Positions 50,543 through 64,000 of a stretch of 64,000 nucleotides of DNA are shown here, one piece after another (position 1 is the first letter of the stretch; each line of letters opens with the position of its first letter). A model generated the notes under the pieces. It searched no databases, had not been told where the DNA came from, and saw only the letters and a program-made list of their open reading frames with translations. Made by a program: the position numbers and the translations under genes. The DNA is from an uncultured Phycisphaerales bacterium. GTDB lineage: Bacteria; Planctomycetota; Phycisphaerae; Tepidisphaerales; Tepidisphaeraceae. The stretch lies in NCBI GenBank assembly GCA_963755915.1, contig CAVWLP010000003.1:1-64000 (forward strand), written 5' to 3'.

Positions 50543-51763
50543 CTACGCGATCGACCCGAGCGGACGGGCGCTGATCGGCAAAGGTTTCAGCGGTTTGTTT
50601 TGAAGGATGAGCGGCACGTCGACCACTCGCCGGAAGAGCAAGCGGAAGGTTGAACCGACTCCGACCCGCGAATCGACGGTGAGAGTGCCTCCCAATAATT
50701 TAGCTGCCTGCGATGCAATGGCGAGGCCCAGTCCCACGCCAGATTCGCCGTGAACGTCTCCTCTTTTGAATGCCTCAAAAACCGTCTCCAAGAGCGCGGG
50801 CTCAATTCCAGGCCCCTCATCCAGTACCCACAGCACCGGACCATCTGACTGAGCGTCTTTTCCGAATCCAACGCGGATATCTCCACGGCTGATGTATTTT
50901 ACGGCGTTGCCCACGAGATTTTGAAGCACCAAGGTGAGCAACTCGCCATCTGATTCGACAACCGTGCCAGGGCGCATCTCGACAATGAGCCGCGCTCCTT
51001 TGGCGTCAGCCTCGCGCGAGAATTGCCCGAGTATTTTTGTCGCCAGTGCATGTAAATCGACGGGCGACAGCGTTATCGCTTTGCCGGATTTCCGGAGTCG
51101 TTCGTGGTCCAGTAGTCGACGCATGCCCATGACCGTGTCATGGATGCATTGCTGCGCGTGGTCAAGCGACTCTTCCGCTTCTGGGAAGCCGCCTGCCCGG
51201 TTCAAATCCAATCGGAGCGCTTGCAGTGTGAGCGTTACACTATTCAGGTTGTTGTTGAGGTCGTGAGAGAGGAACGAGAGAAACTTCAACTCCGTCTCGG
51301 CAGCAACGCGAAGTTGATTCTTCTGTTGGTCCACGAGGGCAATTACGGATCGCTGGAGCATCACGTCGATAGCGGCGTGGAGTGCCGCGGATTCCATGGC
51401 TTCCATCCGCCGGTTTAGCGCCTGTTCAATGTGCAATACAGTGATGGCCCTGAGCAGCCGATCCTCCTGCATGACCTCGACCACGTCGAGGTTCAGCCTG
51501 AAACGTGAAAGGCCCTGGGACGGTGCGCGGCTTACAAGCTCTCGAATCACGTCCGGGTCATCCGACGCAAGGGCTTGAGCGATCGCGAGCAATAGCTGGG
51601 GCGTAGAATTCTTTAATTCGTCGGATGTGAGATGCTGCATCTGCGGCATCGCCGCTCGCACAGCGGCGTCCCAATCCAGCGTTATCTGGTCCGCGCCAGT
51701 GCGCAGGATTCTTGCCAACTCGGGGAATGGGCGATGCGTGAGTTGTGCCAGCAGTGGATTCAT
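50543..51763 (-). CDS. Cytoplasmic sensor histidine kinase
   Basis: H box LSHDLNN, N box NLVGNAVKY, DEGPGI, GVGLGL, GSTF; no TM segments. Confidence 0.93.
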   Translation of the reverse strand: MNPLLAQLTHRPFPELARILRTGADQITLDWDAAVRAAMPQMQHLTSDELKNSTPQLLLAIAQALASDDPDVIRELVSRAPSQGLSRFRLNLDVVEVMQEDRLLRAITVLHIEQALNRRMEAMESAALHAAIDVMLQRSVIALVDQQKNQLRVAAETELKFLSFLSHDLNNNLNSVTLTLQALRLDLNRAGGFPEAEESLDHAQQCIHDTVMGMRRLLDHERLRKSGKAITLSPVDLHALATKILGQFSREADAKGARLIVEMRPGTVVESDGELLTLVLQNLVGNAVKYISRGDIRVGFGKDAQSDGPVLWVLDEGPGIEPALLETVFEAFKRGDVHGESGVGLGLAIASQAAKLLGGTLTVDSRVGVGSTFRLLFRRVVDVPLILQNKPLKPLPISARPLGSIA

Positions 51764-51999: not shown

Positions 52000-52705
52000 G
52001 TGACGATCGCAGCCCGCACGGGCAACAAAATTTTGGACCGCCTGCCAGAGCAGGATTTTCATCGAGTTTTCTCTCAATTGGAAAAAATTGCGCCCGATGT
52101 TGGCGAGGTCGTGGCCTATCCGGACAAAGAGCCAAGCGCGTTCACTTCCCAATCTCGGGCGTGCTTTCTTCGATGGTGGTCCTTGAAGACGGGTCGATGA
52201 TCGAGGCATCCACAATCGGAAACGAGGGCATGGACGGCCTCTATCTTATGGCTGATCCACTGGCCAACCCCTACCGCATCAACGTTCAGGTACAAGGCGA
52301 CATGCTCTGTATGTCGGCGTCAGCGTTCCGGCGTGCGTTGTCCGAGAGCCACGCGCTGACGCAACTTTTGCTCAGATACGCGATGGTGCTGATCCAGCGG
52401 GTGCTCAAAATGGAGCGTGCATTCAACACCACACGATCGAGGAACGAATGTGCAGATGGTTGCTTGAAACGGCTCACCGCAAGGGGGAAGATCATTTCGG
52501 CCTAACCCAGGAATTTCTGAGCGACATGCTCGGCGTCCGCCGACAGAGCGTAAATTTGACGGCGCGCATCCTCCAACAGGTCGGCCTGATCAAATATCAC
52601 CGGGGCGAGTTGACGATTCTTGACAGGGCCGGTTTGGAAGAATCTTCCTGCGAGTGTTTTCGTGTCACCAGCCAGATGTACGAACGCATGATGAGGCTTA
52701 CGTGA
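52000..52705 (+). CDS. Crp/Fnr-family regulator (two frameshifts)
   Basis: NKILDRLP, IGNEG, MCRWLL, LTQEFLSDMLGVRRQSV, SCECF. Confidence 0.9.
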
Positions 52706-53188
52706 ATATCGCCTTGGGATGCGATCATCGCGGATACGCCGCCAAGCGGGAACTATTGCCGCAATTGCGAACTCTCGGCTATCAAGTAGAGGACTTTGGT
52801 TGCCCTACCTCTTCCGGCGTCGATTACGCGGACATCGCCTATCCCTTGGCGTTGGCGGTTGCCGCGGGGCAATGTGAGCTTGGAATTCTGATCGGGTGCA
52901 ACGGGATGGGCATGAACATGGTCGCGAATAAAGTCCCGGGCGTGCGCGCCGCGTCGGCAGACGATGAATTCGCTGCGCAGCGCCCGTGAAAAGTATCACT
53001 GCAATATCATCTGCTTTGGCGCGGATGTCGTCGGCGGGAATGAGATTCGAAAAATCGTGGAGGTGTTTTTGCAGGCAACGGTCTCCCCACGCCATGCACG
53101 ACAAGTTACAAAAATGAGGGAGATCGAGGAAATGGTGGCCAAAGTTTATGTCGCAAAGCACAATCAACCGTTCGTGTCGCTCGTTTGA
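52702..53188 (+). CDS. rpiB: Ribose-5-phosphate isomerase B family (frameshift near 52980)
   Basis: IALGCDHRG, DYAD, ANKVPGVRAA, RHARQV.K. Confidence 0.85.
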
Positions 53189-53195
53189 GACGACG

Positions 53196-53576
53196 ATGAA
53201 GACTCAAGGCGAAATCGAAAGCGCGATTTCGGAAGGCATCGGGCGTTTTGAACAGGAATACATGGGCCGTGGCCCCAAGGACGTTCACGCGCACTTGATC
53301 GGCGATCTGCTTGTCGTCCGGCTCAAGGGTGTTTTGACAGCAGCCGAGCAGCACCTCGTCAAGACGCTACCAAGTGAAAAGGGCCGGGATCTTCTCAAGC
53401 AGGTGCGCAGCCATTTGATCGAAATAGCGCGACCGCAGTTGGCGGCGATGATCGAGGGCATCGCGGGCGCCACGGTTGTGAGCCTGCACCATGACATCAG
53501 TACAGTGACCGGTGAAGAAGTAATTCTCTTCACCCTTTCAAGTTCGCCGCTTTGCCGCGAGGTGAAGAAGAGATAG
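53196..53576 (+). CDS. DUF2294 (MpsC-like) protein, copy 1
   Basis: KTQGEIE.AIS, FEQEYMGRGP, LKGVLT.AE..L, SLHHDIST.TGE. Confidence 0.9.
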   Translation: MKTQGEIESAISEGIGRFEQEYMGRGPKDVHAHLIGDLLVVRLKGVLTAAEQHLVKTLPSEKGRDLLKQVRSHLIEIARPQLAAMIEGIAGATVVSLHHDISTVTGEEVILFTLSSSPLCREVKKR

Positions 53577-53684
53577 ACAATTCGATAAATCGACATTGTC
53601 CATTGCTATTAGCCGTTGGCACGCGTACCGTGTGACGTTGCGCAGGAAGTGTTCGTGCCTGTGCGTATTTGAAATATAAAGTCG

Positions 53685-53789
53685 TCGGACGACTAAATAG
53701 ACGGCATCCCGGTCTCCGGGCGGCCGGTTGCAGAGTAAGCCGACGTGGTTCCGCACCGTAAGGGTGTTGAACCACGTCGGTTCTTTTTT
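53685..53789 (+). promoter_or_regulatory. Conserved leader RNA with intrinsic terminator, copy 1
   Basis: TCGGACGACTAAATA (53685-99), GAGTAAGCCGACGT (53733-46), stem 53738-51/53769-82, T tract. Confidence 0.8.
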
Positions 53790-53817
53790 GGCTTAAACGA
53801 AGTCGGAAACGTACGTA

Positions 53818-54225
53818 ATGCCTAATTCCACGCAAACAATGGCTGAAGAGATTGGCCAGGTCGCAGCAGCGTTTCAGCAGCAAAGAACCGGCATCGAGCC
53901 CAAATCCGTGCATGTCGTGCTTAGAGGAGACACCTTGGTGGTGACACTGCAGGGCGCACTGTCGCTGGCCGAGCAGGCTTTAGCGCGGAGTGCCGAAGGC
54001 GCGGCGGAAGTACAAGAGCTTCATCGTCAGTTGTTTCTCACGGCGTTCGACAGGCTCCGAGCGGAAATCAGGCGGATCACGGGGTTAAACGTGTGTGAAG
54101 CGGCCGAAGTCGAATCAGCGGCTGGGGCAGCAATTCAGGTTCTCGCCAGTGGAACGATGGTTCAAGTATTCCAACTTTCCGGAAAGTTGCCCCCCGGAGA
54201 TTTCAGCTCTGGGGACAAACTGTGA
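53818..54225 (+). CDS. DUF2294 (MpsC-like) protein, copy 2 (divergent)
   Basis: FQQQRTG..PKSV.VVL..DTLVVTL.GALS.AE..LA, EIRRITG, GTMVQVF.L. Confidence 0.8.
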   Translation: MPNSTQTMAEEIGQVAAAFQQQRTGIEPKSVHVVLRGDTLVVTLQGALSLAEQALARSAEGAAEVQELHRQLFLTAFDRLRAEIRRITGLNVCEAAEVESAAGAAIQVLASGTMVQVFQLSGKLPPGDFSSGDKL

Positions 54226-54334
54226 AGCCACGGTCTCTGGAGTTGCGCTAAAAGTGCCAGTGATTGTCAATTTTAGTTTTACGGACCCAAGGCAATTTCG
54301 CTTCTGGGCCGAAGACTTTTTTAAGGAAATGGAC

Positions 54335-54874
54335 ATGTTAAGTAAGAACTCGGTTATCGCGTTATTCGATCAACACACTCAAGCCGAAAACGCAGTGAAG
54401 GAACTGCAGCAGGCGGGCTTCGACATGAAGTCGCTGTCTATCGTCGGAAAGGATTACCACACCGACGAGCACGTCGTCGGATATTACACGACCGCCGATC
54501 GCATGCAGTATTGGGGCAAAAATGGCGCATTCTGGGGCGGAATCTGGGGCCTGCTCTTTGGGTCAGCCCTCTTTGTCATCCCGGGTATCGGTCCGATTGT
54601 GGCAGCCGGGCCGGTGATCGCGTGGATCGTCGCCGCTCTCGAAGGTGCGGTCGTTGTCGGTGGCCTCAGCGCTCTTGGCGCCGGGCTCTACAGCATCGGC
54701 ATTCCGAAGAAAAGCATTTTGCAATACGAAACTTCGCTGAAGGCAGGGAAGTTTATGCTGCTGGTGCATGGAACCCCTGAGGAAATGAGTCGAGCTTCGA
54801 CGATCCTCAAAACCACCGGGGCATCGGAATGCCAAGAGCACATGGCGGATGCACCGGTTGCCGCGCTTGTTTGA
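54335..54874 (+). CDS. General stress membrane protein (YflT/DUF1269-like)
   Basis: H.QAE.AVKELQ..GFD...LSIVGKD, IPGIGP...AGP, YE..LKAGK. Confidence 0.8.
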   Translation: MLSKNSVIALFDQHTQAENAVKELQQAGFDMKSLSIVGKDYHTDEHVVGYYTTADRMQYWGKNGAFWGGIWGLLFGSALFVIPGIGPIVAAGPVIAWIVAALEGAVVVGGLSALGAGLYSIGIPKKSILQYETSLKAGKFMLLVHGTPEEMSRASTILKTTGASECQEHMADAPVAALV

Positions 54875-54953
54875 TCGACGTGATTCTCACCCATGCACAT
54901 CCGGAAGCGATTCGGAGCACGATTGCCGGATCGCTTCCGCGACATTAGGAGCA

Positions 54954-55640
54954 ATGATGAATTCTCAGCTATCGGGCACACACCAGAAGGTTTACCAGCA
55001 TCTTTTCCAGCATCCGATGCCGCACAACCTCCAATGGCGAGAAGTCTGGTCAATGCTCGGTGCAATGAAGGATGCACAGGCGATCGGAGGAAGCCAAAGG
55101 CAATCTGAAAGTCGAGCGAAATGGTCAGGTCCTCACGCTGCACCGTCCGCGCGGCAAGGACTTGGCGGACAAACAGGAATTAATGAAGGTCCGCCATTTC
55201 CTGGAGCGCTCTGAATCGCCATTGCCAAAGCCCGAGCCGGGAGGCACCCACTTATTGGTTGTCATCGATCATCGCGAGGCGCGAATATACAGCGCGGAAA
55301 TACATGGATCGGTTCCGCAACGGATCAAGCCTTATGACCCTTTCGGCTTCGATCGAGATCTGCATTACAACCAGGACGATTCCAACGGCCAGCGAAAACC
55401 GGAGAAAAAGAGCTTCTACGAGGCAGTCGCCAAAACGCTGCGCGGGGCGAAGCAGATTTTAATGTTCGGCAGCGCCACCGGCGCCAGCAGCGCGATGGAA
55501 GCGCTGGTTGAGGAGTTGAAGCATAATCACCCCGATGTCGCAGAGCGGATCATCGGCACCTTTACTGTTGATGAGCATCATCTAACTGAAGATCAGTTGC
55601 TGGCTAAGGCGAGGCGCGCTTGTTTTTGCCTGCACATAAG
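54954..55640 (+). CDS. Host-attachment/eRF1-like family protein with a small N-terminal domain (frameshifted; 3' end uncertain)
   Basis: LFQHP..HNL.W.EV + VVIDHREARIY, FYEAVA..L.GA..IL.FG, LTEDQLLA.AR. Confidence 0.6.
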
Positions 55641-55677
55641 TCTGCGATGTCTGCGGCGAATTGACATAAAGATAGTT

Positions 55678-58202
55678 ATGACCACATCAACGATGTCCAA
55701 ACCTCCTGCGTCGACGGCACGCCCCCACGAACTGGCCCGGTTGCTTCAGCAATACGGATGCGGGCCAATTCATTTCACCGGCACGGATGGATTTTACGAG
55801 AGGCACCTCGTCTTCGACACCGTGAAAGATTTGGCCACCACCAGCCCGCGTGAACACTTCGAGGCAGTCGCCCGCTCGGTTCGCGATGTTCTCTCGCAAC
55901 GCTGGGTGGCCACGGAGAAGACCTATGAGCGCGAGAATCCCAAGCGCCTTTATTATCTCTCCATGGAATTCCTCATCGGCCGTTCGCTTGGCAACAATGT
56001 CACAAATCTCCTTCTCGACCCTCTGGCAAACCAGTTCGCGGCGATGAAGAAGCTCGATTGGCTGGAACTGATCGAAAAGGAGCCCGATGCCGGCCTGGGC
56101 AACGGCGGACTGGGTCGGCTGGCCGCCTGCTTTCTGGATTCGTTGGCCACGATGCAGCTTCCGGCCATGGGTTACGGCCTGCGTTATGAGTACGGCATTT
56201 TCAGACAATCCATCAAGAACGGATGGCAGCAGGAAAGCCCGGACAATTGGCTGCGTCGCCCGGACCCATGGGAAGTCGCCCGCCTGGATCGAGCATGTCA
56301 GCGTGAACCTGAACTGTTCGTTCAAAATGACCGGACGGAAACTTGCACGCCATTCCGGGCACGCAGTCCAATCTGATCGGTATTCCCTATGACCGGCCGG
56401 TGGTCGGATACGGCGGCAAGACCATCAACACGCTCCGCCTTTGGGCCGCGGCAAGTTCCGGATTATTTTGATTTCCAGAGATTCAGCGGCGGCGATTTCG
56501 TCGGCGCGTTGGCGGAGATGCTGTCGGCGGAATCGCTGACCCGCGTCCTGTATCCCGACGATTCGACCAGCCGTGGGAAGAGCCTGCGCTTTGTGCAGGA
56601 GTATTTTCTCGTCGCCTGTTCGCTGGCCGATCTTGTCCGCCGCTTTCGCGAAACCAATTCCGATTGGACCCAGTTGCCCGAGCATGTCGCCATCCAGCTC
56701 AACGACACGCATCCCTCGCTGTCCGTCCCTGAGCTGATGCGAATTTTGCTCGATGATGCCCATCTGGGATGGGACCAAGCCTGGGACATCACGAAGCGGA
56801 CGCTGGCCTATACGAACCACACGCTTGTTGCCCGAAGCCTTGGAGAAATGGCCTGTCGAGTGGTTCGAGAAGCTGCTGCCGCGCCACCTGGAAATCATTT
56901 ACGAGATCAACCGGCGACTGCTCGATGATGTGCGTGCAGAAATTCCCAGGCGACGAGGGCCGCGTGGAGCGCATCAGCCTCGTCGAAGAGACGGACGGCC
57001 GCAACATCCGCATGGCGAACCTGGCCATCGTCGGCTCGCACAGCACCAACGGCGTGGCCGCGATTCACTCCCGCTTGCTCCGAACCACGACCGTGAAGGA
57101 TTTGGCCGACATGTTTCCGGAGCGGTTCAACAACAAGACCAACGGCGTGACGCCGCGCCGCTGGCTGCTGCTGTCGAATCCCATCGCTGGCCCGCGTGAT
57201 CACGCGAAGCGATCGGCGATGGCTGGATCACTGACCTCGATCAATTGCAGAAACTCAAGCCGCTGGCCGAATGACAAAGGCTTTCGCGACGCCTTTCTGA
57301 AGGCCAAACGCGAGGCCAAAGTGCGGTTTGCCGATTGGCTCAAGGCTAGCACCGGGCAAGCCGTCGATCCCGACACCATCTTCGATTGCCAGATCAAGCG
57401 CATCCACGAATACAAGCGGCAACTGCTCAACGCGCTGCGCATCGTCGTGCTTTACAACCGGCTGCGCGCAAATCCGGAACTCAATATGCCGCCGCGGACG
57501 TTTTTCTTCGCCGGCAAGGCCGCGCCGGCCTATCACCTGGCAAAGGTCATCATCAAGTTCATCAACAACCTGGCCGGCGTCATCGACGGCGACCCGGCTA
57601 TGCGAGGCAAGCTCAAGGTCGTTTTCCTGCCGGAATATTCTGTCACGCTGGCCGAGCGGCTGATTCCCGCCAGCGATGTCTCCAACCAGATTTCGACCGC
57701 GGGCTACGAAGCCAGCGGCACCAGCAACATGAAGTTCATGATGAACGGCGCTCTCACGCTCGGCACGCGCGATGGCGCGACCATCGAAATGGCTGAGGAA
57801 GCCGGCGAGGAAAACTTCTTCCTGTTCGGCCTGACGGCCAAGCAGGTGGCGGATAGCCGGAGCTGGTACAACCCACTACTGGCATTACGAAAACGAGCCG
57901 GAGACGCGTGCCGCGCTGGACCTGATTTTTTCCGACCATTTCAGCCGCGATGAACCCGGCATCTTCGAGCGAACTGCGCGAGACGCTCTTCTGACGGGCG
58001 GCGATCACTACATGCACCTGGCGGATCTGAAGTCCTACCTCGAGCGCGGACCAGCAGCTGGTCGAGTTGTATGCCGAGCAGGATGCCTGGGCGCGGAAGG
58101 CGATATTGAACGTGGCCGCGTCTGGGAAATTCTCCAGCGACCGAACCATCGCGCGAATATGCGTCGGAAATCTGGAACGTGAAACCATGCCCGGTGGCAT
58201 GA
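55678..58202 (+). CDS. glgP: Glycogen/maltodextrin phosphorylase (many frameshifts)
   Basis: [54 protein letters not shown]. Confidence 0.96.
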
Positions 58203-58218
58203 GAAGCAGACTGCAGCA

Positions 58219-59880
58219 ATGACGATTTCTCCACTCGCGGGTAAACCGGCTCCCAAGGAAATGCTGGTCGATCTGGCTCGCCTCGAACGCGAGTATTACG
58301 AGCGGCAGCCCGATTTAGCTGATCCCAACCAAATGGTCAGCTTCGGCACCAGCGGCCATCGCGGCTCGTCACTGCGCGGCACATTCACCGAGGCCCACAT
58401 CCTGGCCATCACCCAGGCGATTTGCGATTACCGGCGCAGGCCGGAAATCAGACGGCCCGCTTTACATGGGCAAGGACACGCACGCGCTGTCCGCGCCAGC
58501 CCAGCGCACGGCCTTGGAAGTTCTGGCGGCCAACGGTGTCGAGACCATCATCCAGCCAGACGACGGCGTAACGCCGACTCCGGTCATTTCGCGCGCAATC
58601 CTCGTCTACAACCGCAGCAGGAAACAACGTCTCGCCGACGGCATCGTCATCACGCCTTCGCACAATCCGCCGGAAGACGGCGGGTTCAAATACAACCCGA
58701 CCAATGGCGGTCCGGCCGACACCGACGTGACCGGCTGGATCCAGGACTCGCGCCAACGAATTGTTGCGCAGCAACAATGCCGGCGTGAAGCGCGTCCCCT
58801 ATGCCGCCGCCCTCAAGGCGGCGACGACGCACACCGAAGATTTCATTCTTCCCTATGTCAACGACCTGCGGAACGTCATCGACATGGAAGCGATCCGCGA
58901 GCGCGGGCCTGAAGTTGGGCGTCGATCCGCTGGGCGGCGACGGCGCTGCCTTATTGGGAGCCGATCAATTCGATTTACAATCTCGATCATCACGGTCGTC
59001 AACCCAAGACAATCGACCCGCCGTTTGCGTTCATGACGGTGGACCACGACGGGCAAATCCGCATGGACTGTTCCAGCCCGTACGCGATGGCCAGACTCGT
59101 CGGGCTCAAAGATAAATACCGCGTCGCCTTCGCCAACGACCCCGACTCCGATCGCCACGGTATCGTCACGCCGTCCGTCGGTTTGATGAATCCCAACCAT
59201 TATCTCGCCGTTGCGATTGGCTATTTGCTCATCCCATCGCCCGCACTGGCCGGGCAATGCGCCGGTCGGCAAGACGCTGGTCAGCAGCAGCATGATCGAC
59301 CGGGTGGTGAGCAAGCTGGGTCGACAGCTCTACGAAGTTCCCGTTGGCTTCAAATGGTTTTCGCCGGGACTTTTCGACGGCTCTCTGTTTCGGCGGCGAG
59401 GAAAGTGCCGGTGCGAGTTTCCTGCGACTGGACGGCGCGGTTTGGACGACGGACAAGGACGGCCCGATCATGGATTTGCTTGCGGCCGAAATCACCGCGC
59501 GCACCGGCAAAGACCCGGGCGAGCATTTTCGTGATCTGACAGCCGAGTTCGGCACGCCTTATTACACGCGCATCGATGCACCCGCGACGCCGCAGCAGAA
59601 GGCGAGTCTTGCCAAGCTGTCGCCCGAAGCGGTGAAAGAATCAAGTTTGGCGGGCGATCCTATCACCGCAAAGTTGACGCGCGCTCCTGGCAACAACGCC
59701 TCAATCGGTGGTTTGAAAGTTTCGACCGCGAGCGGCTGGTTTGCGGCCCGTCCGTCCGGCACCGAAAACATCTACAAGATTTACGCCGAAAGTTTCCGCG
59801 ACCAGAAGCATCTGAAATCCATTGTGGATGAAGCTCAGCAGATTGTAAGCGGCGCGATCGCCGGACCGGCGAAGGGTTGA
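58219..59880 (+). CDS. pgm: Phosphoglucomutase (many frameshifts)
   Basis: [40 protein letters not shown]. Confidence 0.96.
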
Positions 59881-59892
59881 TCGGAGTTGCTG

Positions 59893-61599
59893 ATGCCGAA
59901 CCAACACCGTCAAATTCCTGTCCTGCCTTTCCGCCCGCGCGTCCATCCCATTGCGGACAAAGTTTTCCGTTCCTATCCCGTGGGGCGGCAGAGTTTCTCC
60001 CGCGCTTGCCAGGGGAATGTTCTCTCGCTCAGGATTACCACAACAAAGCCTCTGGCGCAGAACGTACGTGCTATCCTGGCGACAACATTGAATTCGGCTG
60101 ACGGTAGGTCATGGACAAAGGTGCCGTTCGAGCGCGAAAATGATCGCACCCTTTTATGCTGCATCACGCCTAACCACCCCGGTTTGCATTCCTTCCGTGC
60201 CGAGTTCTCGCTAGACGGCGGCACCAGGTGGCTCGGCGATACCGTGCCAGACGCCTGGATTTTGATCGATCCACCTCAGGTAGACGCGCTGTGCATTTAT
60301 ACCCTAATTCCCAATGTCTCCGGCACGCTCGCAAATTGGAAAGCTGACCTCAAGCGGATCGGCGATATGGGCTTCAACGCAATCCATCTATTGCCCATAA
60401 CCACGATGGACGATTCCGAAAGCCCCTATTCGGCGAAAGACCTCTTCAAAGTTGACCGCAGCTACTTGAGCACAGGATCACGGGACGATGACCTCTCGCA
60501 GTTAGAAGACTTCGTCGCAGAAGCCAAGCGACTTGGGATTCGGCTTGTCTTTGATTTGGTTCTCAATCATGTAGGAGTCCATAGCACGATGGCGCTGCAG
60601 GCACCGGACTGGATTGTTCCCGATCAGAATGAGCCGGACGGACTGAAGCGCGCGAGATTTTGGTGCGATCAGGGGTGGCGCAACTGGAATGATTTGGTCT
60701 TGATCAATTATGAGCATCCATCGGAAGCGGTCCGCGCAGAAATATGGTCGTACATGACCGATTATGCCTTGTTCTGGGCGAAATACGCCAACGACACCGG
60801 AGGCTTTGTACGTTTTGACAACCTCCACAGCAGCGATCCCGCCTTTGTTGCTGCGCTCACCACGTCATTGCATGCTGAATATCCAGAAGCTGGCATTCTT
60901 GCCGAGTATTTCACTGATGAAAGCACGCTGCTTCGGAATGGGCCAGAATGGGGATTGAATTTGAATCTGGCCACGCCCTGGAATTTCAAATTCGTCCCTC
61001 AACTTCGCGACTATCTGAAATACATGCACCGGGTTTCGGAGCACATCCGATACTTCATGCCGATCACCTCACACGACTGCGGCTCACCAGCACAAGAATT
61101 CGGCACCGCGGACTCGACGGTCCCTCGCTACGCAGTCGCGGCCCTGCTTGGCACTGGAGCCACCGGAGTTCCGCAGGGAGTGGAATTCGGCGAGAAAGAG
61201 CGGATCGACTTTATCGGCAGAAAGCCGAGAATGTCATATCCCGAAAGACCAAGGTTTGCCCAATTCATCCGTCAGGTCAATGAGATTGTCGCGAAATATC
61301 CGGCATTCCGACGGGGTGAAAACTGCTGGTTTGTGGATAACGGCCATTCCGCAGTCATAGCGGCATTTCGACGGGATTCAGACGCGCAGACATCAGGCTT
61401 TCTTGTCGTCTGCAATTTCGATACCGCTGGTCCGCAGCATATCACGATCGAACTTGGGCCCTTGTTGAAAAGAGACGGACCCTTCAAGTGCATCGAATTG
61501 TTGAGCGGCGACACTCGAATTGTGATGCATCCGCACATGGAGCTTGCACTTCCGGCATGTGGCGTCGAGGTGCTGAACTTTCCCGGAAAGGAAAATTGA
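59893..61599 (+). CDS. GH13 alpha-amylase family glycosidase
   Basis: MGFNAIHLLPI, SPYS, DLVLNH, RFDNLHS, LAE, SHD. Confidence 0.85.
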   Translation: MPNQHRQIPVLPFRPRVHPIADKVFRSYPVGRQSFSRACQGNVLSLRITTTKPLAQNVRAILATTLNSADGRSWTKVPFERENDRTLLCCITPNHPGLHSFRAEFSLDGGTRWLGDTVPDAWILIDPPQVDALCIYTLIPNVSGTLANWKADLKRIGDMGFNAIHLLPITTMDDSESPYSAKDLFKVDRSYLSTGSRDDDLSQLEDFVAEAKRLGIRLVFDLVLNHVGVHSTMALQAPDWIVPDQNEPDGLKRARFWCDQGWRNWNDLVLINYEHPSEAVRAEIWSYMTDYALFWAKYANDTGGFVRFDNLHSSDPAFVAALTTSLHAEYPEAGILAEYFTDESTLLRNGPEWGLNLNLATPWNFKFVPQLRDYLKYMHRVSEHIRYFMPITSHDCGSPAQEFGTADSTVPRYAVAALLGTGATGVPQGVEFGEKERIDFIGRKPRMSYPERPRFAQFIRQVNEIVAKYPAFRRGENCWFVDNGHSAVIAAFRRDSDAQTSGFLVVCNFDTAGPQHITIELGPLLKRDGPFKCIELLSGDTRIVMHPHMELALPACGVEVLNFPGKEN

Positions 61600-61699
61600 A
61601 ACCTAGAAATATTATTTTGCTGGTTCACGGTTGGGATCGCCTATACTATGACATGCAAGTTGGCTGATCCCTCTGCTCCGTGCAGAACAGCGAAAATCT

Positions 61700-61804
61700 T
61701 CGGATGACTAAATAAAGAGTAATCTGGCCGAACCGCCAGAGGACTCGTTAACGAGTAAGCCGACGTAATTGAACACTCCCGTGTTCAGTTGTGTCGGCTT
61801 TTTT
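61700..61804 (+). promoter_or_regulatory. Conserved leader RNA with intrinsic terminator, copy 2
   Basis: TCGGATGACTAAATA (61700-14), GAGTAAGCCGACGT (61753-66), stem 61757-76/61781-800, T tract. Confidence 0.8.
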
Positions 61805-61843
61805 GTTTGCGCAACAGGCGTTTAACGCCTGGAGAACCTCAAA

Positions 61844-62776
61844 ATGAGAACTCCCAGTCCTTTCGCGGCACTGATCTTTGTCGTAATCCTCGCCATTGGG
61901 GGAGGTTTGGCGTTCGCCGCCTACAGCGCCGCAGCGCCCGAAAAGAGCATATGTACCGGGATCATTGCATTTGTGATTGCTGTCGTCGCCGCTCGCTCAA
62001 TCAGGGTCGCCGATCAGTGGGATAAAGCCGTGATTCTGCGGTTGGGCCAGTTCCACTCACTAAAAGGTCCGGGGCTTTTCTTCATAATACCTATTGTCGA
62101 TGCGATTCCCTACTGGATCGATACCCGCGTAATCACAACCGGCTTCAAAGCTGAAAAGACGCTGACTAAGGACACCGTCCCGGTGGACGTCGACGCAGTG
62201 CTGTTTTGGAAAGTCATCGACCCCAAAAAGTCGGCGCTGGGCGTAGCGGATTATCGGAGCGCCATAAGCTGGGCATCGCAGACCGCGCTCCGCGATGTGA
62301 TTGGAAAAACGATGCTTTCAGACATGCTGGAAGGCCGCGACAAAATCAGCGCGGTGCTGCAGAAGATCATTGACGAACGCACCGAACCATGGGGCATCAA
62401 TGTTATTTCTGTAGAGGTGAAGGACGTCTTGATTCCCCAAGCCCTTGAGAATGCCATGTCCATGCAGGCCCAGGCCGAACGAGAGCGCCAAGCCCGTGTG
62501 ATTTTGGGAGATTCGGAACGGCAGGTAGCGGAGAAATTCGCTGAAGCGTCCAAGAGCTACCAGCATAATCCGGTCGCATTTCATCTCCGGGCAATGAACA
62601 TGCTTTACGAGGGGTTGAAGCAGAATTCCACCATCGTGATCGTTCCCAGCACTGCCGTCGAAAGCATGCAGTTAGGCGGACTTGCTGGATTGACCGCCCT
62701 GACTATGGGAATCGGTCAGGACGGCGGTGGCAATGGAAAGCCGGTGCCACCCAATGAACCTGCATTGATCCGATAG
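61844..62776 (+). CDS. SPFH/stomatin-like (slipin) protein
   Basis: Two N-terminal TMs, GPGLFFIIP, TKD.VPV.VDAV, QTALRDVIG, QAQAERER. Confidence 0.93.
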   Translation: MRTPSPFAALIFVVILAIGGGLAFAAYSAAAPEKSICTGIIAFVIAVVAARSIRVADQWDKAVILRLGQFHSLKGPGLFFIIPIVDAIPYWIDTRVITTGFKAEKTLTKDTVPVDVDAVLFWKVIDPKKSALGVADYRSAISWASQTALRDVIGKTMLSDMLEGRDKISAVLQKIIDERTEPWGINVISVEVKDVLIPQALENAMSMQAQAERERQARVILGDSERQVAEKFAEASKSYQHNPVAFHLRAMNMLYEGLKQNSTIVIVPSTAVESMQLGGLAGLTALTMGIGQDGGGNGKPVPPNEPALIR

Positions 62777-62862
62777 CGGTCGTTGGATGGACCCGGCGGA
62801 CCTCGTCCGTCACGGACTCGCTTGAGGCAACGTGACGCAAACTCTCGTGAAAGGAACTCATT

Positions 62863-63024
62863 ATGTCCATTCTATTCATCATAATTATCATCCTCGTGAT
62901 CATGAGCTTCGGCGGTGGGTACTATAGGCCGGCTTATCGAACGCATGGGATTTCACTTGGAACGATCCTCTTAATCGTACTGGTCTTATGGCTTTTCGGC
63001 GTGTTTGGCAGCCGGCCGTTTTAG
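62863..63024 (+). CDS. 53-aa membrane protein (DUF3309-like), below the ORF-track cut-off
   Basis: AAGGA Shine-Dalgarno; MSILFIIIIILVIMSFGGGYYR...GTILLIVLVLWLFG. Confidence 0.75.
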   Translation: MSILFIIIIILVIMSFGGGYYRPAYRTHGISLGTILLIVLVLWLFGVFGSRPF

Positions 63025-63143
63025 GTGTTGTTAGGCCCCCCACGGAATTCTTCTGTTGGAGCCGACAGGAAAGACAATGCCCAGCATGCACGCAAGGAGA
63101 TACCGTCATTCACACGCTAAATAAAATTTCGCTCGATAAAATC

Positions 63144-64000
63144 GTGCCTCAGGAAAATGCCCCAGGCGCCCCGGGATTCCGCCACGTTGGACTTGCAGCG
63201 CAAAAACGGGCGTGGGCACTGCCCTCAGCAACAAGAGCCTTGTCTGGTTCACGCTGAGCCATGGAATTTTCAACGAAATATTTTATCCCCGTATCGATCA
63301 AGCGTGCGTCCGCGACATGGGATTGATAGTCACGGACGGAGCGGATTTCTTCTCCGAGGAAAAGAGCGACACCAAGTCTGAGGTTCATTGGCTGGCTGAG
63401 GGCGTCCCAGCATTCCGACTGGTCAATACGTGCCGCGCCGGCCGATACCGCATCGAAAAGCAAGTCGTGACTGATCCGCAGCGAAACACAGTTCTGCAAC
63501 GCATCCAGTTCACCGCAATGCAAGACCATCTTTCCGATTATCGGTTGCATGTGCTGCTGGCGCCGCATCTGGGAAACCACGGCGATGGCAACAATGCCTG
63601 GGTGGATGAGTTTGAAGGCTTGCCGCTTCTGTTTGCCCAGCGTGACGGATATGCGTTGGCACTGGCCTGTTCCGCGCCATTACTGAAGCGATCCGTCGGT
63701 TATGTCGGTTCTTCCGACGGCTGGCAGGATCTAATGGCGCACAAGCAGATGACCTGGGAATACACGCAGGCTCGGAACGGGAACGTGGCTTTGACTGCCG
63801 AAATCGATCTTCTTCACCCCAAGGGACATTGCGAACTGGCCTTGGGCTTTGGCAAGAACTCTCAAGAAGCGGCGGAGAACGCAATCGCCAGTCTTCGCGA
63901 AGGTTTTGACAACATCAAGCACGAATACATTGCCGGATGGCAGTTTTGGAAGAAGTCGGTGATGTCGACAAAAAAGGACCGTTTCCATGCGGGCGATCTT
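63144..64000 (+). CDS. Glucan 1,4-alpha-glucosidase/glucodextranase (GH15) N-terminal part, runs off the window
   Basis: APGAPG + PRWTCSAKTGVGTA, VWFTLSHGIFNEIFYP, FFSEEK, LLAPHLGN, GYVGSSDGWQDL. Confidence 0.88.

Follow-up and report, generated by a model that had tools for sequence, protein, structure and literature searches.

Between a GH13 gene and a gene for an SPFH membrane protein, the 64,000-nt stretch of planctomycete DNA analysed here (the window) carries a long hairpin that runs into an intrinsic terminator, raising the question of whether this element simply ends the GH13 transcript or gates the genes behind it and, in the latter case, what sets the switch. A preliminary description made from the letters alone gave the sequence and coordinates of 61700-61804 without error, and we confirm both its 20-pair terminator with a T tract, separated by 39 nt from the SPFH start codon, and its assignment as the second copy of a conserved leader, homologous to 53685-53790. 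The features of the locus are collected in Table 1.

Table 1. Features of the leader, its flanking genes and the mpsC locus.
Feature	Position	Strand	Remarks
mpsC-A (DUF2294/YbcI), candidate antiterminator protein	53196..53576	+	PF10057, E 1.3e-37
First copy of leader and terminator, between mpsC-A and mpsC-B	53685..53790	+	74.6 bits with model R1; R1 training sequence
mpsC-B, divergent acidic paralogue under leader	53818..54225	+	PF10057, E 3.7e-16
GH13 gene, upstream	59887..61599	+	not owner of the terminator
Predicted sigma70-like promoter	61617..61647	+	TTGCTG-19 nt-TATACT; predicted start near 61654
Predicted 5' hairpin of leader	61660..61694	+	-11.5 kcal/mol; sequence unconserved in family
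Antiterminator hairpin (predicted)	61700..61763	+	lowest-energy fold of transcript ending at 61763; pairs UCGG 61700-03/CCGA 61760-63, internal loop AUG/AAG, ACU 61707-09/AGU 61754-56, UAA 61713-15/UUA 61748-50, GAGU 61717-20/ACUC 61743-46, UCUGGC 61723-28/GCCAGA 61735-40
Intrinsic terminator	61757..61804	+	20-bp stem 61757-61800 and six-T run 61799-61804
SPFH/Band 7 membrane protein, first gated gene	61844..62776	+	PF01145, E 2.6e-34; GGAG before ATG
Small DUF3309-like membrane protein	62863..63024	+	PF11752, E 2.9e-4, under curated cut-off
GH15 glucodextranase-type gene	63100..64000 (to 65542 in contig C3)	+	PF09137, E 1e-93; start approximate

The same-strand GH13 gene stops 100 nt before the element, which fits a plain GH13 terminator. 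However, the leader is present at six of the eight SPFH loci examined (two in the own genome, six in relatives), and a GH13 gene precedes it at two of these six, both own-genome copies; at the remaining four, other genes lie upstream. Since the element stays with the SPFH orthologues while the upstream genes change, it is not the terminator of the GH13 gene, in agreement with the preliminary description. The two SPFH loci without leader belong to one genome that has neither MpsC nor the element (G185) and one that has both elsewhere (G154). A promoter-like site between the GH13 gene and the element, 53 nt 5' of the core, points the same way. Of 187 homologous upstream regions, 158 hold a comparable site above threshold (76 on average and at most 95 in shuffles), and in 97 of these 158 the distance to the core is 50-69 nt. 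The scoring scheme is home-made and allows the 19-nt spacer; owing to this spacer length, a standard promoter scan did not list the site. Two metatranscriptome runs (word shares 0.18 and 0.07) yielded sparse contigs without start, end or strand.

The preliminary description was also right that a conserved leader with a switchable terminator precedes the SPFH gene, but the pair of competing folds it proposed does not hold. It had set the hairpin GAGT-AA-TCTGGC-loop-GCCAGA-GG-ACTC at 61717-61746 against the palindrome ACTCGTTAACGAGT at 61743-61756. Both exist, and the palindrome alone reaches -5.2 kcal/mol, but its pairing stays at or below 0.02 at all eight transcript lengths that contain it, with three start points each. 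Nor is it conserved: 66.8% of cells pair across 41 homologues, a value matched by 241 of 500 shuffles. It also ends one base short of the terminator, with which it is compatible, and therefore cannot block it. Similarly, GAGTAA does occur at both 61717 and 61753, but not as a repeated box, as the first occurrence is the local variant of a covarying stem that reads GGGC, GGGU or GAGC in homologues. We consider it barely credible that the element is either a plain GH13 terminator or a switch between 61717-61746 and ACTCGTTAACGAGT.

Co-transcriptional folding instead places the base of the long hairpin against the terminator, a pairing left unnamed in the preliminary description. The 5' arm of the terminator, AAGCCGA, is the 3' strand of the antiterminator base, with the base strand AGUAAGCCGA doubling as terminator arm, and positions 61754-61763 are thus claimed by both 61700-61709 and the terminator's 3' arm. 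In growing-transcript folding, the base helix has a probability of 0.97-1.00 when the transcript ends at 61763 and of 0.00 once 61800 has been made; with the longest 5' end it falls to 0.16 at 61770-61790. The best ON fold has -37.8 kcal/mol against -49.4 kcal/mol for the OFF fold, a gap of about 11.6 kcal/mol, and the predicted default state of the SPFH leader is OFF. Across 140 non-redundant homologues the median cost of the ON fold is 9.5 kcal/mol, and in 132 of them the transcript without its terminator folds predominantly into the base helix. Relative to shuffled sequences, the whole region (z -7.9), the hairpin 61717-61746 (z -4.1) and the terminator (z -7.8) are all unusually stable.

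Further pairings 5' of the core were also considered. A 5' stem of variable sequence is present in most homologues inspected. Bases 5' of the core can pair with AYGACU in about half of the homologues, giving a small CGG-looped hairpin, a would-be competitor of the base helix that is poor in the SPFH copy; its covariation is weak (p 0.003, among kin that are not independent). An anti-antiterminator, in which an upstream UCCG loop pairs with CGGA, was rejected as a family feature, being found in 38 of 168 sequences against a shuffled mean of 27 (maximum 37), with the TCC/CCG loop in just 8 of 110.

The own genome holds eleven copies of the element including 53685-53790, found by BLAST and profile searches and recovered as the same eleven by covariance model R1. 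The consensus fold of 41 sequences (39 non-redundant homologues and the two window copies) is one long, irregular, unbranched hairpin with a variable apical loop, in which 93.7% of cells are paired and 12 of the 19 pairs have changed on both sides; none of 500 shuffles and no slid control reached these values. The pairs of the hairpin base were imposed by the search pattern and so cannot count as covariation evidence; they are supported by thermodynamics and by reappearing, in different letters, in the second form described below. The terminator covaries within the eleven own copies (91.9% paired, seven pairs changed on both sides). A script found it in 124 of 131 homologues with enough downstream DNA, and five of the seven misses were recovered by eye; two matches without terminator, L028 and L101, look like chance. 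We note that L132:301-479 carries two full element-terminator units in tandem, 116 nt apart, and that the start of a second unit is visible at L111.

Scanning species genomes with a search pattern gave 134 stretches in 7 of 64 parts, which puts the overall estimate at about 1200, and 127 of the 132 loci have planctomycete titles. The range is patchy, with the element in 16 of 24 genomes of the own family against 4 of 150 in the phylum, the latter under strict filters with 34 candidates scored per genome. Rfam 15 has no match at gathering score in the whole window, nor in 61600-61850 at E up to 10, and the conserved leader RNA is thus uncatalogued in Rfam. In the open literature we found no description of the leader or of an RNA role for MpsC; motif tables in supplements may hold the RNA. 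Taken together, these observations make it very probable that the element is a real, uncatalogued terminator-switch leader gating the SPFH gene.

The copies are grouped in few regions, and the block GH13-leader-SPFH-GH15-MFS-leader-phosphoketolase, which occupies 59900-64000 and continues past the window, has a paralogue at G000:C2:2132930-2147528 with 75-84% identity, as might be seen if the element were a repeat spread by duplicated islands and merely a strong terminator or insulator. Yet compensatory changes extend over several planctomycete classes, the promoter distance is fixed, the copies stand in sense orientation before unrelated genes, and a terminator that always acted 39 nt ahead of a start codon would keep the gene silent; we regard a mere repeat as very improbable. 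The paralogous block on C2 also has a mobile-element-like insertion before its second leader.

Behind the leader, the SPFH gene is followed by DUF3309, GH15 and an MFS sugar transporter, with the next element at C3:67032; 61801-64000 contains no + strand terminator-like site. DUF3309 and GH15 are likely co-transcribed with SPFH. This wider unit is inferred only, since DUF3309 was found beside none of seven other SPFH homologues and GH15 beside two of the seven, within 1.5 kb. Relative to its intact paralogue, the GH15 reading frame breaks near 63165-63170. In 52161-59880 and 63100-63212, Crp-like, RpiB-like, glycogen phosphorylase, phosphoglucomutase-like and GH15 genes are frame-split; such a number of single-base breaks suggests assembly error rather than decay.

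Targets in the own genome are two SPFH genes, small ORFs before two phosphoketolase genes, mpsC-B, a desaturase-family gene, DUF5670 and a region with csrA and small proteins. Elsewhere, 38 of 54 first genes (heuristic gene calls) have a Pfam match, among them CsbD (2), BON (2), DUF3309, YflT, Hsp20, Hsp70, ferritin and transglycosylase-associated proteins, as well as PRC, fasciclin, CsrA, an ECF sigma factor, kinases and P-type ATPases. The genes downstream of the elements share no common pathway, and the set resembles general-stress regulons. The regulated genes here point to general stress or stationary phase.

The tie to DUF2294 (MpsC), which had been proposed from the sequence, is borne out by gene position and by co-occurrence across genomes. 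In the own genome, all three mpsC-A genes have an element within about 0.4 kb. MpsC lies within 4 kb of 41 of 80 elements (one of which, L069, looks like the window's own locus), and an mpsC-B start follows the core within 300 nt at 16 of the 80. Conversely, 65 of 80 MpsC loci (metagenome loci chosen by protein) have an element within 600 nt, and at 62 of the 80 the element is directed away from mpsC-A; among the 15 loci without a near element, seven have less than 450 nt of upstream flank and several have long flanks. Of 40 relatives, 14 have both, 22 neither, two the RNA alone and two MpsC alone, a count in which the 14 include the unpublished G164 and the kin are not independent; MpsC is thus present in 14 of 16 element-bearing relatives.

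An element without detected MpsC occurs in G173 (95% complete, two copies), G162 (81%), G138 (96%, a weak match) and G191, and a deeper profile still finds no MpsC in the RNA-only relatives. The copies in G173 (L241, L242), G162 (L243) and G138 each deviate from the invariant core, and one of L241-L243 has a damaged terminator; these changes fit decay, on a post-hoc reading. No MpsC was detected among 251 genomes from the phylum of G189. Upstream of the mpsC-A locus, a histidine kinase with an RsbRD_N-like N-terminus (50543-51763, - strand) diverges from the Crp-like/RpiB-like/mpsC-A run at 52000-53576 (+ strand), and a similar kinase precedes another element copy at C2:2151449; this kinase is a possible signal input.

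Inspection of MpsC genomes missed by R1 reveals a second form of the leader, GGCAGAU...AUANGCC followed by a terminator, mostly after a clear TTGACA promoter. It lies within 450 nt of the mpsC gene in 11 of 12 such genomes. Ten second-form leaders align with 89% pairing, and the bases common to both forms are GG..GA / UA.GCC at the base. A model of this form, R2, matches 7 of 141 genomes, all MpsC-positive (five training, two held out), and none of 128 MpsC-negative genomes. A hand-written descriptor for both forms found 3 of 18 MpsC loci with 14 extra own-genome matches and was dropped for R2. Two genomes, G066 and G483, have MpsC and no element on their short contigs.

Both forms occur inside one host family (f7). 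In a tree of 33 proteins, a single clade (100/100) unites the 15 first-form MpsC proteins, and those of the second form are not monophyletic; the bootstrap is unsettled, and the clade arises partly by construction, as 10 of the 15 first-form rows were picked by query similarity. Second-form targets include GTP-dependent PEP carboxykinase (4 of 7 loci scanned), DUF4914, NuoE/F-like genes and DUF1275, and the carboxykinase targets hint at a CO2/bicarbonate origin. We note two unusual loci: at L149:580-2898 (G011:C69) an mpsC-B-like domain is in frame with PEP carboxykinase with a second-form leader upstream, and at L147 (G120) a longer second-form leader lies between mpsC and DUF1275, with another promoter-hairpin-terminator 5' of mpsC.

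On balance, we favor a reading, drawn from sequence comparison, in which the leader would be antiterminated by an RNA-binding MpsC-A that serves a general-stress-like gene set. Judging from the family-wide promoter signal, transcription would start near 61654. The 64-nt hairpin would fold first, as computed and as covariation supports, until the terminator strips AAGCCGA once 61790-61800 emerges and, winning by about 11.6 kcal/mol in the computed folds, releases an RNA of ~150 nt. Conserved arginines and lysines of MpsC-A, to go by linkage and co-divergence, may bind the invariant basal internal loop GG-AYG-AC / GU-AAG-CC, and bound MpsC-A would delay the exchange such that polymerase passes the U run. 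SPFH, and probably DUF3309, GH15 and the sugar transporter if co-transcribed, would then be expressed together with the genes of the other ten copies. More speculatively, mpsC-B, itself downstream of such a leader and lacking the basic residues, may damp the response, making MpsC-B a candidate feedback antagonist.

The properties of the protein bear on this proposal in both directions. In MpsC-A, a protein of 126 residues, the core positions R25, R42, K62, R64, K68, R71 and R79 keep a basic residue in no fewer than 80% of 81 rows, and most of these residues are lost in MpsC-B (pI 5.1 versus 7.0 for MpsC-A). The AlphaFold model of MpsC-A (pLDDT 94) consists of a helix, two strands, two helices and two strands, and has no Foldseek match at E 0.001 or better. 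Among known folds its best Z is 6.8 (VIA), to an unrelated peptidase domain (rmsd 3.2, 93 aligned); RbfA reaches Z 5.4 (rmsd 3.9, 88 aligned), and RNA-binding folds such as KH type II are not clearly matched. The overall neutral protein, the lack of a clear RNA-binding fold, the MpsC-less element genomes and the 15 of 80 element-less loci speak against MpsC-A as the binder. A receiver-MpsC fusion at L146:3507-4364 (G003:C107) is as expected of an output domain, and phosphorylation may be one input to MpsC.

The main rival is a riboswitch aptamer for a small molecule or ion that turns the genes on, with the mpsC genes as partners that make, remove or buffer the signal. About 20 near-invariant bases, the tandem pair at L132 (equally typical of riboswitches), the copies in genomes without detected MpsC and the missing RNA-binding fold would all suit such an aptamer, as would a conserved core that overlaps the terminator in the manner of the ON riboswitches crcB and pfl, as far as the relevant part of the motif survey describes them (PMC2864571). 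However, the RNA is a single unbranched hairpin with its conserved bases limited to one small internal loop, and mpsC-A lies mostly upstream of the element or faces away from it rather than under it. In addition, the core sequence shifts with the MpsC clade, which an unchanged small ligand would not need, and the gene sets behind the two forms are unrelated. We therefore judge a riboswitch unlikely.

A further rival keeps a protein switch without MpsC-A as activator: MpsC-A could terminate, an A/B pair or another factor could act, or CsrA could read the 5'-strand GGA. The genome has three CsrA genes, one behind an element, and a 5'-end hairpin exposing CGG/GGA is possible, with five or six of six pairs in 67 of 140 homologues and position -2 occupied by G in 30 of the 42 with Y = C and in 42 of the 98 with Y = U. 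The staphylococcal data can be read in the same direction. The S. aureus mpsC deletion grew normally, mpsC being dispensable for growth in air and for transport; mpsC is separated from mpsAB by a weak terminator, and mpsA fell 1.7- to 2.5-fold in 5% CO2, and the passages on mpsC give it no function and propose no RNA role (PMC6689103). These results neither support nor exclude a regulatory role, and they weigh against a required activator of mpsAB. Yet a terminating factor would add little to a default that is already OFF by about 10 kcal/mol, the second form has no GGA at this place (GGCAGA), and the element tracks MpsC over genomes, a distribution counted for MpsC alone. We consider a protein switch of this kind decidedly unlikely.

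Four Bacillota plasmid records extend the association, with mpsC adjoining a bicarbonate permease, mpsAB, formate dehydrogenase or an MFS transporter. In three of them mpsC is followed by a terminator leader before the bicarbonate permease (L157), the MFS gene (L158) or formate dehydrogenase (L160). R1 and R2 give no significant match on the four loci (best E 0.13, L158). The likeness of the L157 and L158 cores, by descriptor and eye, is weak, and L159 and L160 have a leader terminator without recognisable core. At L159:2300-2507, a staphylococcal mpsA leader on a plasmid has a promoter-like site and, immediately ahead of the start codon, a strong terminator.

Tentatively, and with more doubt than confidence, we extend the MpsC-A proposal to a wider one: MpsC could be a new class of RNA-binding antiterminator with an older CO2/bicarbonate form, which a planctomycete clade may have rewired, with co-diverged RNA, into a general stress regulon governed by antitermination in place of an alternative sigma factor, with MpsC-B as built-in negative feedback. 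If true, this would give a function to the orphan domain PF10057, a neighbour of bicarbonate-transport genes in Bacillota, extend the small set of bacterial antiterminators by a new protein-RNA pair, and explain the co-regulation of CsbD, BON, YflT, DUF3309, Hsp20, ferritin and SPFH, typical general-stress genes, in some planctomycetes. Both components, a 126-residue protein and a 105-nt RNA, are small and come in two co-diverged forms. In sum, the observation in the preliminary description is partly confirmed and its interpretation partly supported.

Among known systems, the closest in logic are the antiterminators BglG, SacY, LicT and GlcT, in which a weak RAT hairpin, its internal loops conserved, extends into the 5' arm of an intrinsic terminator, termination is the default and the regulator gene often lies just upstream. 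The overlap of the hairpin with the terminator 5' arm is likewise present here. However, the RAT hairpin has ~30 nt and another sequence, against about 64 nt in this leader, and MpsC, unlike the BglG-type proteins, has no PRD domains, with a dispersed stress-type target set instead of sugar-uptake operons. The own genome (81% complete) has no match to CAT_RBD (PF03123; control positive in 4 of 14), HutP (PF09021; 1 of 14) or GlpP (PF04309; 4 of 14). By analogy, then, the leader would work like a RAT-type antiterminator from outside the RAT family. ANTAR regulators (EutV, AmiR, NasR/NasT) act on leaders with twin hexaloop hairpins through a helical domain. The likeness lies in a small output domain, alone or receiver-fused as in the L146 protein, that would serve many dispersed leaders; the differences are one long hairpin in place of two hexaloop hairpins and an alpha/beta MpsC model. 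The ANTAR domain (PF03861) had no match in the own genome, in a search whose control likewise matched nowhere.

In the crcB and pfl ON riboswitches, as the motif survey describes them, a conserved structure overlaps the terminator and its stabilisation turns genes on (PMC2864571); the present RNA shows no evident multi-helix pocket or pseudoknot, and no metabolite is common to its targets. The Rhodopirellula-1 motif, a planctomycete motif of that survey which is not in Rfam, is also a repeated hairpin with CGGAUGA near its 5' end, but, by eye against the first alignment rows and the consensus drawing, it has AAC...GUU ends, no AGUAAGCCGAC strand and no terminator (PMC2864571). On the protein side, the counterpart is the staphylococcal MpsC/YbcI of the mpsABC bicarbonate-transport locus (PMC6689103), which belongs to the same Pfam family, PF10057.
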